The translations under genes and the position numbers were made by a program. Below, in pieces: positions 1,428 through 5,428 of a stretch of DNA of 64,000 bases; position 1 is the stretch's first letter, and every line of letters begins with the position of its first letter. The DNA is taken from the NCBI RefSeq assembly GCF_024700885.2, contig NZ_CP117016.1; one strand, written 5' to 3'. The DNA comes from Escherichia coli. Its GTDB lineage: Bacteria; Pseudomonadota; Gammaproteobacteria; Enterobacterales; Enterobacteriaceae. The notes beneath the pieces were generated by a model. That model made no database searches, was not told the DNA's origin, and saw only the letters and a list, made by a program, of their open reading frames with translations.

Positions 1428-2240
1428 TTATTTTTTAGCAGAATCTGCGGCTTTCGCATCAGCTTCCGGCTTTGCATCAGCCTTCGGCGCTGGTTTCACA
1501 TCCAGCAGCTCTACGTCAAACACCAGGGTAGAATTCGGTGGGATCCCCGGAACACCCGCTTTGCCGTAAGCCAGTTCTGGTGGAATAACCAGTTTGATCT
1601 TACCGCCTTTCTTGATGTTCTTCAGACCTTCTGTCCAACCCGGAATAACACCGTCCAGACGGAAAGAGAGCGGTTCACCACGGGTGTAAGAGTTGTCGAA
1701 CTCTTTACCGTCGATCAGCGTACCTTTGTAGTTCACGACAACAGTATCGCTGTCTTTCGGTGCTTCGCCTTTACCGGCTTCGACTACCTGATAAACCAGA
1801 CCAGTTGAAGAGGTTTTCACACCTTTCTCTTTGGCAAATTTCTCGCGGTACTCTTTACCTTTCACTTCGTTATCTGCCGCGTCTTTTTCCATCTTCGCCT
1901 GAGCAGAAGACTTCACGCGAGCTTCGAATGCTTGCAGTGTCTGTTCGATCTCTTGGTCGGAGAGTTTGCTCTTATCAGCAAATGCATCCTGAACACCAGC
2001 GATCAGCTGATCTTTATCCAGTTTGATGCCCAGTTTTTCTTGTTCTTTAAGAGAATTTTCCATGTAACGACCCAGCGAAGCACCCAGTGCATAAGCTGAT
2101 TTCTGATCGTCATTTTTGAACGCTGCTTTGCTGTCAGCAGTTGTAGCAGGTTTTGCAGCTTCAGCAGCAAAAGTGATCGGTGCATGCAGGGCAACGGCCA
2201 TTGTGGTCGCCAGCAGCGTTACTTTAAACAGTGATTTCAT
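1428..2240 (-). CDS. fkpA: FKBP-type peptidyl-prolyl cis-trans isomerase FkpA (periplasmic), 270 aa
   Basis: Translation has a signal-peptide-like N-terminus (MKSLFKVTLLATTMAVALHAPITFA) and an FKBP domain (VVVNYKGTLIDGKEFDNSY...LVFDVELLDV); matches remembered FkpA. Confidence 0.95.
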   Translation of the reverse strand: MKSLFKVTLLATTMAVALHAPITFAAEAAKPATTADSKAAFKNDDQKSAYALGASLGRYMENSLKEQEKLGIKLDKDQLIAGVQDAFADKSKLSDQEIEQTLQAFEARVKSSAQAKMEKDAADNEVKGKEYREKFAKEKGVKTSSTGLVYQVVEAGKGEAPKDSDTVVVNYKGTLIDGKEFDNSYTRGEPLSFRLDGVIPGWTEGLKNIKKGGKIKLVIPPELAYGKAGVPGIPPNSTLVFDVELLDVKPAPKADAKPEADAKAADSAKK

Positions 2241-2460
2241 CCATATCTCCAGGATCGGGGCATCTCACCCCAGGGTTAACTATTATCAGAAGGGTACTAT
2301 AAAGCGTTGTCGAACAAATCTACATACAGACACGCCCTATTATCATCTATTTTCAGACTCTTTTTGTTTAAATTAGTTTCGATGACCGCGAAATGAGTGC
2401 TGTCTCGGGCAGCAAAGTTAAGTAGAATCCGCGGCGACCATTCGACAAAAGAGGTGAATC

Positions 2461-2679
2461 ATGCAGGATTTATCATTTGAAGCACGCCTGGCAGAGCTGG
2501 AGAGCCGACTGGCTTTTCAGGAAATCACCATTGAAGAACTGAACGTCACGGTGACCGCTCATGAAATGGAGATGGCGAAACTGCGCGATCATCTGCGTCT
2601 GCTGACCGAGAAGCTAAAAGCCAGCCAGCCGTCGAACATCGCGTCGCAGGCTGAAGAAACGCCACCGCCACATTATTGA
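2461..2679 (+). CDS. slyX: SlyX, small coiled-coil protein, 72 aa
   Basis: Translation [28 protein letters not shown]... matches remembered SlyX; divergent from fkpA. Confidence 0.9.
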
Positions 2680-2684
2680 GGCGT

Positions 2685-2712
2685 AAAAAAAGCGGGGATT
2701 CCCCGCTTTTTT
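2685..2712. terminator. Bidirectional rho-independent terminator shared by convergent slyX and slyD
   Basis: aaaaaaagcggggattccccgcttttttg: a perfect hairpin flanked by an A-run on one side and a T-run on the other. Confidence 0.8.
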
Positions 2713-2727
2713 GTCACTTTTTCGGTA

Positions 2728-3318
2728 TTAGTGGCAACCGCAACCGCCGTTACCTTTACCGCCGCAGCAGCCTTCGCCACCGTGTTCATGACCGTGATCG
2801 TGGCCATGACCACCGCAGCAACCGTCGTGGTCGTGATCGTGGTGATGATCGTGCGCACCGTGAACGTGGCCATGAGCCAGTTCTTCTTCAGTCGCTTCGC
2901 GAATCGCCACAACTTCAACGTTGAATTTCAGGTTCTGACCGGCCAGCATGTGGTTACCATCAACCACGACGTGATCGTCTTCAACCGCAGTGATTTCAAC
3001 CGGTACCGGACCCTGGTCAGTTTCAGCCAGGAAACGCATACCTACCTGCAGTTCATCAACGCCCATAAATACGTCTTTAGGAACGCGTTGCACCAGGTTT
3101 TCGTCGTACTGACCGTAAGCGTCGTTCGCGCCAACAGCGACATCAAATTTGTCGCCAACTTCGTGACCTTCCAGCGCCGTTTCCAGGCCAGAGATCAGGG
3201 AACCGTGACCATGCAGGTAGTCCAGCGGCGCACTCACCGGAGACTCATCAACCAACACACCGTCTTCTGTACGTACCTGATAGGCCAGGCTGACCACCAG
3301 GTCTTTTGCTACTTTCAT
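2728..3318 (-). CDS. slyD: FKBP-type PPIase / metallochaperone SlyD, 196 aa, with His/Cys-rich C-terminal tail
   Basis: Translation MKVAKDLVVSLAYQVRTEDGVLVDESP... ending HGHVHGAHDHHHDHDHDGCCGGHGHDHGHEHGGEGCCGGKGNGGCGCH; matches remembered SlyD. Confidence 0.95.
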   Translation of the reverse strand: MKVAKDLVVSLAYQVRTEDGVLVDESPVSAPLDYLHGHGSLISGLETALEGHEVGDKFDVAVGANDAYGQYDENLVQRVPKDVFMGVDELQVGMRFLAETDQGPVPVEITAVEDDHVVVDGNHMLAGQNLKFNVEVVAIREATEEELAHGHVHGAHDHHHDHDHDGCCGGHGHDHGHEHGGEGCCGGKGNGGCGCH

Positions 3319-3412
3319 GATATCTCCTGAGCATGGGAAGAATAGTGGCGCAGATTGTAGCGGAATTCTGCAGCCGTGTACTCACTAGCTTAAAAAAACT
3401 CGGCGCATATCG

Positions 3413-3613
3413 CTAGTCCGGATGAAAAATCCCGATCACTTGCTCATCTTTGCGAACGTGATCGCGGGCTTCTTTGTCCGCTTCTCGCATCTGATGTCCG
3501 CACTTAACACATTCAACAATATCAATATTATTTTCGCGCCACATCGCCATTGAATCCTGCGCCTGACAGGCCGGGCATTTTGCCCCCGCAATAAAACGTT
3601 TTCGGATTGCCAT
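3413..3613 (-). CDS. yheV: YheV, small zinc-ribbon-like protein, 66 aa
   Basis: Translation contains two CxxC pairs (CPAC ... CVKC); sits immediately downstream of kefB on the same strand. Confidence 0.8.
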   Translation of the reverse strand: MAIRKRFIAGAKCPACQAQDSMAMWRENNIDIVECVKCGHQMREADKEARDHVRKDEQVIGIFHPD

Positions 3614-3622
3614 CTTTACCCT

Positions 3623-5428
3623 CTACTCAAATTCATCCCAGCCGTCCAGCTGGCGTCGTTCTTGTTGCATTTCACGCTGGAAAATCTCTTCCAGTTCGCG
3701 TCGGGCTTCCCTGGCGCGAGAAATTTGTACGGTGTCGGCATGCATTGGGATGAGCTCCCGCAACATCCGCATATCCAGGCGGCGAAAATGCAGTTGCGCC
3801 CGCTGCGCCTGATGTGGATGCATGCCTAGCGTGACCAGCGTCTTGCGCCCCAGCTCTAACGCACTGGAGAATGTCTCACGAGAAAACTGCGTCACCCCTG
3901 CCTGTAATAACTCATGCGCCTCCACACGTCCGCGCGCTCGCGCAAGAATATGTAAATGCGGAAAGTGCTGCTGGCATATTTCCACCAGTTTCATGGTGTC
4001 TTCCGGCTCATTACAGGTAATGACGATAGACTCAGCGGCCTCTGCACCCGCAGAACGTAAAAGATCTACCTGCGTGGCGTCGCCGTAATAAACTTTGTAG
4101 CCATATTTGCGCATCAGGTTAACGGCACTGATATCCCGCTCCAGCACAGTAATGCGCATTTTATTTGCCATCAGCAAACGACCAATCACCTGACCAAAAC
4201 GTCCAAAGCCCACGACAATGACCTGCGGTTTATCATCGTTGACCCACGGTTTTTCATCCTCTTCTTCCGGTCCGTTAAACTGGCGGGATAGCCATTTATC
4301 TACCAGCTTCATCAGCAGCGGCGTGGTCATCATGGAAAGCGTCACCGTCACCAGCAACAGCGCCATCTGGTCACCCTGGAATAAGCGTTGTGAAGAAGCG
4401 GTAGAAAAGAGCACAAAGGCAAACTCACCGCCCTGACTCAACACGCCAGCAAACTGCATCCGCTCTGAGCTACGCACGCCATACAGTCGCGCCAGCAGAT
4501 ACAGCACGAGAATTTTCACCGCCACCAGCACAACCACAGCTATCACTACCCACAACAGATGGGTATAAAGCACCCCGAGGTTGAGCGACATGCCGACAGA
4601 GATAAAGAACAAACCGAGCAGCAACCCCTTAAACGGATCGATAGCCGTTTCCAGTTCATGGCGATATTCACTTTCCGCCAGCAGCACGCCTGCAATAAAC
4701 GTACCGAGCGCCATCGACAGCCCCAGCGCATCCATAAACAATGCGGAACCCAACACCAGCAGCAACGTCGCGGCGGTGAACACTTCCCGCACGCCAGAAG
4801 CTGCAATAAAGCGGAATACCGGACGCAGTAAATAGCGCCCGCCAATCAGCATGCCGACAAACGCCAGCACCTTCATGCCGATCTTCATCCAGTCGAAATG
4901 TTCGTCTGCCGAACCCGCCAACAACGGCACTAACGCCAGTGCCGGGATCACTGCCAGATCCTGAAACAGCAGAACCGAAAACCCGAGCTGCCCGGATTCG
5001 CTGCGATTCATCCCTTTATCACGCATCAGTTGCAACGCCATTGCGGTTGAGGACATCGCAAGGCCAATACCACCGACCACCGCCGCCTGCCAGGCGAAAT
5101 CCGTCAGCATCAATAATCCCGCCAGCAACGCCGCGCTTAACAGCACCTGTGCCGCACCTACGCCAAAAATCGAACGCCGCAATTGCCAAAGCTTGGAGGG
5201 ATTCAACTCCAGGCCGATGATAAACATCAGGAACACCACGCCGAGTTCCGAAAAGTGGAGGATCTCATCGACGTCGCTAATAAAACCCAGCCCCCACGGG
5301 CCAATTGCAATCCCTGCCAGCAAATATCCCAACACAGCGCCAATACCCAGCCGCGATGCCAGCGGCACCGCAGCCACCGCCGCGAAGAGAAACAACACTC
5401 CTGCGAGTAAAAAATCGGAACCTTCCAT
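3623..5428 (-). CDS. kefB: Glutathione-regulated K+/H+ efflux antiporter KefB, 601 aa
   Basis: Multi-TM N-terminal domain plus C-terminal KTN/Rossmann segment ([17 protein letters not shown]); matches remembered KefB. Confidence 0.95.

Follow-up and report, generated by a model that had tools for sequence, protein, structure and literature searches.

In the window, i.e. the whole stretch of 64,000 nucleotides of Escherichia coli DNA that was analysed, positions 2728-3318 of the minus strand contain slyD, a coding sequence of 196 amino acids plus stop for an FKBP-type peptidyl-prolyl isomerase/chaperone with a C-terminal metal-binding tail. The product is identical to K-12 SlyD (196 of 196 residues), to the protein of PDB 2KFW and to RefSeq WP_000861334.1, and its sequence has an exact entry in public sources under the name SLYD_ECOLI. 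It matched the NCBIfam equivalog NF008008 along residues 1-196 of 196 (1e-128; 426.8 bits against a cutoff of 174), Pfam FKBP_C at residues 4-78, and the NMR structure of full-length E. coli SlyD, PDB 2KFW, at residues 1-196 (3.5e-131). End-to-end alignment was obtained with 2KFW and with 2K8I (residues 1-165), structures having both FKBP and IF domains; the arrangement by which SlyD is defined, an FKBP domain interrupted by an inserted-in-flap (IF) chaperone domain, is present, and so is the second defining trait, a C-terminal tail that starts with HGHxH and is rich in His, Cys, Asp and Glu. The gene is annotated slyD in all matching E. coli genomes that were inspected. The sequence-only reading had named the gene slyD, and the match to NF008008, FKBP_C and 2KFW together with the identity to SLYD_ECOLI bears this out: positions 2728-3318 are the canonical E. 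coli slyD.

The neighbourhood is equally ordinary. The gene is followed by slyX (2461-2679, plus strand), which is convergent with slyD, and is preceded by yheV (3413-3613) and kefB (3623-5428), both on the minus strand, as is fkpA (within 1428-5428). The order fkpA, slyX, slyD, yheV, kefB was found in the window, in the RefSeq annotations of six other E. coli strains, and likewise in Salmonella. Convergent slyX and slyD have a common bidirectional intrinsic terminator at 2686-2712 (both strands), which consists of a perfect 13-nt inverted repeat with flanking A and T runs. Strains ACN002, SMN197SH3 and CE2050 show 1-nt differences in the length of these A/T runs, which may be real homopolymer variation or sequencing error. 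In a further strain, STEC276 (NZ_CP091022.1, locus 1217-2329), the 48 nt that separate slyX from slyD are interrupted by an IS4-like element, IS421, which lies in the common terminator or close to it and leaves slyX and slyD both intact.

The tail is encoded by 48 codons at 2731-2874 of the minus strand (stop codon at 2728-2730), which correspond to amino acids 149-196, from HGHVHG to GGCGCH; the C-terminus of the product reads ...HGHVHGAHDHHHDHDHDGCCGGHGHDHGHEHGGEGCCGGKGNGGCGCH. The peptide previously quoted for the last approximately 50 codons is present exactly, as amino acids 149-187. Among the tail residues there are 16 Gly, 15 His, 6 Cys, 5 Asp and 2 Glu, and the codons used are mainly CAC (11), GGT (10), GGC (6), TGC (6), CAT (4), GAT (3) and GAC (2), so that of the former description of this DNA as rich in cac, gac and ggc, the "gac-rich" part was slightly off, GAC accounting for only 2 codons. 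The GC content of 2728-2880 is 0.614, compared with 0.53 for the slyD body and 0.527 for the whole window. This excess is located at codon positions 1 and 2 (0.656 versus 0.53) and is therefore due to the amino acids.

As for repetitiveness, the arrays that Tandem Repeats Finder detected in the tail, all at 2824-2853, have no more than 2.4-3.3 copies of a 6- or 12-nt unit; they show 85-88% match and scores of 33-44, the default score threshold of the program being 50. With all arrays below threshold, the notion of the tail as a true tandem repeat was rejected. The longest exact in-frame direct repeats measured 11 nt, and the repeat content was the same as in 2,000 synonymous-codon shuffles (maximum length 11 versus a mean of 11.9, summed length 122 versus 125). 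The possibility that codon choice raises or lowers the repetitiveness of the DNA was likewise rejected, as the observed values lay at the shuffle median. The expression "GC-rich repetitive", which had been applied to this segment, thus holds only mildly for GC content (0.61 against 0.53) and only weakly for the repeats, which are sub-threshold and at shuffle level. The GC-rich, repetitive and multi-frame-open look of the segment comes only from a peptide of about five amino acids, encoded by CAY, GGY, TGC and GAY codons.

Nevertheless, short exact direct repeats do occur in the tail. Two pairs of 11 nt are the longest (both given for the sense strand, i.e. the minus strand of the window). The first, CCACGATCACG, is found at 2832-2842 and 2793-2803, 39 nt apart, and its copies are the end points of a 39-nt deletion (183 aa) and a 39-nt tandem duplication (209 aa). 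The second, TCATGGCCACG in the haplotype of the window, is found at 2865-2875 and 2799-2809, 66 nt apart, and its copies are the end points of a 66-nt deletion (174 aa) and duplication (218 aa). All Tandem Repeats Finder arrays lie in the His-Asp core, HDHHHDHDHD (2824-2853, minus strand), which contains two copies of CACGAC at 2824-2835, the repeat CACGATCA at 2846-2853 and 2834-2841 (12 nt apart), and ACCACGA at 2837-2843 and 2825-2831, all on the minus strand. This core is the site of the commonest variants, namely those of -12, -6, +6, +12 and +15 nt. Finally, the extreme C-terminus holds the tandem hexamer GCGGTT GCGGTT GC (2734-2747, minus strand; Gly-Cys-Gly-Cys), in which loss or gain of a unit leads to 194 or 198 aa.

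We listed the in-frame direct repeats and looked up the expected deletion and duplication products as exact sequences among approximately 15 billion public proteins. All ten products predicted in the first batch exist, under names that assign them to E. coli, Escherichia, Shigella or Enterobacteriaceae. Their contig counts, which track clonal inheritance and sampling and not mutation rates, were as follows: 174 for the -39 nt allele (183 aa), three for +39 nt (209 aa), six for -66 nt (174 aa), two for +66 nt (218 aa), 693 and 454 for two forms of the -12 nt allele (both 192 aa), 17 for +12 nt (200 aa), 330 for loss (194 aa) and 375 for gain (198 aa) of a 6-nt HD unit, and eight for gain of a 6-nt GC unit (P0019, 198 aa). 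The allele lacking one GCGGTT unit (P0004, an E. coli variant of 194 aa, 34 contigs) was found independently in the 90%-identity cluster of SlyD. In their nucleotide sequences, the +39 allele (for example in CP063214.1) and the +66 allele prove to be exact tandem duplications, and the -66 allele is a clean deletion between the second 11-nt repeat pair; all three lie in the usual yheV, slyD, slyX context.

For comparison, 40 possible 6-nt and 45 possible 12-nt deletions of the tail were ranked by their flanking homology. Among the same approximately 15 billion proteins, six deletions of matched size flanked by 0-1 nt of homology were all absent, as were three with 4-5 nt, while an additional tested deletion with a 6-nt repeat was present on 44 contigs. 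Taken together, products expected from repeats of at least 6 nt were present in 12 of 12 cases (P0004 included) versus 0 of 9 controls with 5 nt of homology or less. Within the set of 45 12-nt deletions, the commonest were those flanked by the two longest homologies (9 and 7 nt), with the 693 and 454 contigs given above. Two 12-nt deletions with just 2-3 nt of homology (P0030 and P0031) do exist on 7-8 contigs, and a repeat of at least 6 nt is therefore not strictly required. Since the contig counts reflect clonality and sampling, the dependence on repeat length is to be taken as qualitative. In one Escherichia variant (P0027, 192 aa, 23 contigs), two separate 6-nt deletions were observed in the tail, of an HD unit and of an HG unit; from this double deletion it follows that the tail can accumulate successive events.

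Next to the protein look-ups stands the frequency of such alleles among complete E. coli genomes, of which 5,425 of 5,426 gave a BLAST match to slyD. One match was on a record that bears the label of a plasmid; the remaining genome was without a match. No tail indel was present in 120 rows sampled evenly down two BLAST rankings. Five BLAST records had a matched span differing from the query length; the four that were fetched all encode WP_000861334.1, three of them having 1-nt changes of the terminator A/T runs and one the IS421 insertion between slyX and slyD. The 1-nt run differences explain why some BLAST spans differed by lengths that are not multiples of three. In generic BLAST the variants fell at the bottom of the ranking, where one (H120) surfaced, and we therefore turned to variant-specific queries and exact protein look-ups.

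The weakest match, NZ_LR536431.1, encodes a 183-aa SlyD and has a 39-nt deletion exactly between the 11-nt repeats CCACGATCACG; it was the single complete-genome record of the -39 nt allele. The 12-nt deletion was present in 15 complete-genome records, five of which are derivatives of one isolate, and the 6-nt HD deletion in nine, four of which are separate assemblies of EPEC E2348/69 (194 aa). One record each was found for +15 nt (MB10, 201 aa) and for +18 nt (CP61_Sichuan, 202 aa), the latter being the product predicted from an 8-nt repeat. The +6 nt HD allele was in none of the complete-genome records, a weak negative given that the query missed 734 genomes of other haplotypes, and is known from the 375 contigs elsewhere; neither loss nor gain of the 6-nt GC unit (GCAACC/GCGGTT) was seen among the 5,426 complete genomes. 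In total, indel alleles occur in at least 27 of 5,425 complete-genome records (approximately 0.5%), a lower bound for which roughly one in two of the 36 records with less than 95% identity were individually examined, and the identity bands set an upper limit of roughly 0.9%. All tail changes observed were in frame and located at short direct repeats. Outside this set, a 192-aa allele was found in Shigella dysenteriae on 113 contigs. The 6-nt HD deletion is carried by different SNP haplotypes in E2348/69 and in RMDEC465, which suggests, from a comparison of haplotypes, that it may have arisen more than once. Our literature searches, one of which was poorly targeted, returned nothing relevant on intraspecies polymorphism of the slyD tail or its use as a VNTR.

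The length variation predicted in the sequence-only reading is thus real, with in-frame alleles of -39, -12, -6, +15 and +18 nt in complete genomes, and the comparison of tail length across strains that it proposed did not find the invariance that was to count against it. Its wording that the segment is "prone" to such variation fits the indels at repeats and, given their rarity (approximately 0.5%), is to be read as a low-rate mutational bias and not as hypervariability.

Next, we examined how the prevailing allele is maintained. Between the window and K-12, which have the same SlyD protein, tail and neighbours, slyD differs at 9 sites, all of them synonymous C/T differences and 6 of them in the tail. 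Across six E. coli strains, 15 synonymous sites segregate while the protein is identical. Synonymous divergence in the tail amounts to approximately 4% with the amino-acid sequence unchanged. The identity of the protein despite synonymous divergence argues that the 196-aa tail is conserved by selection; judged from these comparisons of sequence, purifying selection on the 196-aa allele is clear, and its uniformity is not just a matter of young age. Synonymous variation is itself unevenly distributed along the gene. In the six strains, which were not randomly chosen, 8 of 28 synonymous sites segregate in the tail versus 7 of 107 in the body (Fisher p = 0.003), and a comparison of E. coli with Salmonella gives a pS of 0.52-0.59 for the tail (2728-2874) and of 0.26-0.29 for the body (2875-3318). 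The same two genera differ by amino-acid changes at 5 of 48 tail codons and 1 of 148 body codons. The synonymous excess in the tail is likely due to weak preference between GGT and GGC and between CAC and CAT; alternatively, the rate of mutation or of conversion between repeats may be locally raised.

These data can be set against the idea that the tail is a contingency-type hypervariable locus, in which frequent changes of repeat number are positively selected to tune metal capacity between niches. Such an idea could draw on the multiplicity of alleles, at least one of which has apparently arisen more than once, on the fact that the S. dysenteriae and EPEC E2348/69 alleles mark whole lineages, and on the variation of tail length between genera. 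The slyD tail does resemble contingency loci and VNTRs (phase-variable genes, MLVA markers) in the kind of process involved, since in both, misalignment of direct repeats leads to gain and loss of units. It differs from them in having short imperfect repeats of 2-3 units, in-frame changes and one allele at approximately 99.5%, without on/off switching. A contingency locus should possess a long near-perfect array, several length alleles at appreciable frequency and more repeat content than the peptide needs, whereas we found 2.4-3.3 copies with a longest exact repeat of 11 nt, indel alleles at approximately 0.5%, and a repeat content in the mid-range of 2,000 shuffles. Two to three imperfect units fall well short of the tracts in known phase-variable loci, the DNA is no more repetitive than its codon shuffles, a single allele makes up approximately 99.5% of complete genomes across phylogroups, and the tail amino acids are identical despite approximately 4% synonymous divergence. 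We therefore consider it very unlikely that the slyD tail is a locus of this type. It is also unlikely, if somewhat less so, that some of the lineage-marking alleles (192 aa in S. dysenteriae, 194 aa in EPEC E2348/69) represent adaptive retunings, with the repeat layout acting as a low-rate "tuning knob". If this were true, the retuned trait would be nickel/zinc buffering by SlyD, its role in hydrogenase maturation, or its interactions with the phage lysis protein E.

A different objection concerns the data themselves. If the length variants were artefacts of sequencing or assembly in low-complexity DNA, the tail would in truth be invariant, and it has to be admitted that many alleles are present on few contigs (2-8) and that the single-base differences in the nearby terminator A/T runs are of homopolymer type and possibly errors. 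The tail variants, however, are all in frame and are clean repeat-to-repeat events, and random sequencing error would not follow a 6-nt homology threshold. Moreover, the E2348/69 deletion recurs in four separate assemblies, the S. dysenteriae allele is on 113 contigs, and other alleles are on hundreds of contigs and in finished genomes. This explanation we hold to be highly improbable.

The composition of the tail has one further consequence, which is the presence of additional open reading frames. In 2728-2880, four of six frames are without an internal stop. Two of the resulting ORFs, one of 81 aa in an alternative frame of the sense strand (2673-2918, minus) and one of 82 aa antisense to slyD (2676-2924, plus), had been pointed out as spurious in the sequence-only reading; they exist as described, and both the shuffles and the Pfam search agree that they are spurious. 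A third, which that reading did not mention, is an antisense ORF of 199 aa (2731-3330, plus) that spans all of slyD in codon-aligned register; its frame lacks stops in both the tail and the body, which requires slyD to be without TTA, CTA and TCA codons, and it is most likely a by-product of slyD codon choice. The three alternative frames were open in 100% of 2,000 shuffles of the tail, likewise when synonymous codons were drawn uniformly, because the codons of His, Asp, Gly, Cys and Glu cannot form stops there. The ORFs are therefore artefacts of composition, and their openness is uninformative. A Pfam search of the three extra ORFs gave no credible match, the best E value being 0.7, obtained with the 199-aa ORF. 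That one of the three might be a real gene which adds constraint on the sequence is scarcely credible: their stop-free lengths of 81-199 aa would favour it, while the frames are open in every synonymous tail shuffle, Pfam matches are missing, all segregating sites found are synonymous in the slyD frame, as expected with selection on slyD alone, and RefSeq has no other annotation at this position in any record examined.

We then compared the tail between genera. When 20 SlyDs from enterobacteria, 188-201 aa long, were aligned, residues 1-154 proved free of indels and every difference in length fell in the tail. What differs between genera is that units of the HD, HG or GCC type are gained or lost, while three anchors on either side of them, HGHVHG, GCCG and GGCGCH, are conserved; HGHVHG is invariant in the 20 orthologues. 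The SlyDs of Salmonella, Citrobacter, Enterobacter, Klebsiella, Serratia, Pectobacterium and Dickeya share the FKBP and IF core and all three anchors with the E. coli protein, and differ from it in the number and order of HD, HG and GCC units, with indels confined to the tail. This confinement agrees with the published description of the tail as variable among SlyDs (PMC7055735). More distantly, SlyD of Thermus thermophilus (3CGM) and of Helicobacter pylori (2KR7) have the FKBP and IF core and the HGHVHG-type start of the metal site in common with E. coli SlyD, while their tails are short; that of H. pylori binds fewer metal ions (PMC7055735). Finally, H. pylori Hpn and Hpn-like, the His-rich stretches of some HypB proteins and the tail at the C-terminus of UreE work alike, being disordered low-complexity segments rich in His (sometimes in Cys) which hold several Ni(II) and serve as store or donor (PMC7055735). 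These protein families are unrelated to SlyD, and no homology is claimed.

As for function, the SlyD tail is unstructured, binds up to seven Ni(II) and is required for the role of SlyD in [NiFe]-hydrogenase maturation via HypB; a SlyD truncated at residue 155 fails to support this maturation, and the metal-loaded tail reversibly inhibits the isomerase (PMC7055735). For the tail encoded in the window, the nickel role is that established in the literature on the identical protein (PMC7055735).

We propose the following model, in which the low-complexity DNA of the slyD tail gives rise to rare in-frame indels from repeat to repeat, while selection holds the 196-aa allele; we are confident that this account is correct in its main lines. 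According to the model, the side chains of His, Cys, Asp and Glu would enable the disordered tail to chelate divalent metals, Ni(II) among them, which would make SlyD a nickel reservoir and a donor for HypB during [NiFe]-hydrogenase maturation. Encoding so simple a peptide leaves short exact direct repeats of 6-11 nt in the DNA, spaced in multiples of three, and their misalignment would occasionally delete or duplicate the intervening 6-66 nt in frame. Replication slippage or copy-choice would be the most likely cause of the misalignment; here the coincidence of indels with repeats is what was observed, and the mechanism is what we infer from it. More than 99% of E. coli nevertheless retain the 196-aa allele, which purifying selection maintains. 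On longer timescales, events of this kind would explain the differences in length, restricted to the tail, that are seen between enterobacterial genera.

The biology of the SlyD tail is already known, and the feature described here belongs, as a canonical example, to a family that is well known. Textbook traits of SlyD include its part in hydrogenase maturation, the sensitivity to lysis mediated by phiX174 E, and its bad name as a contaminant in IMAC. What our analysis adds is modest: a spectrum of natural tail-length alleles (174-218 aa) of E. coli and Shigella, each of which maps to a short direct repeat. These natural alleles are ready variants for studying how the length of the tail sets metal stoichiometry. 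In addition, the slyD tail illustrates on a small scale how in-frame indels arise from coding DNA of low complexity while selection holds one allele.
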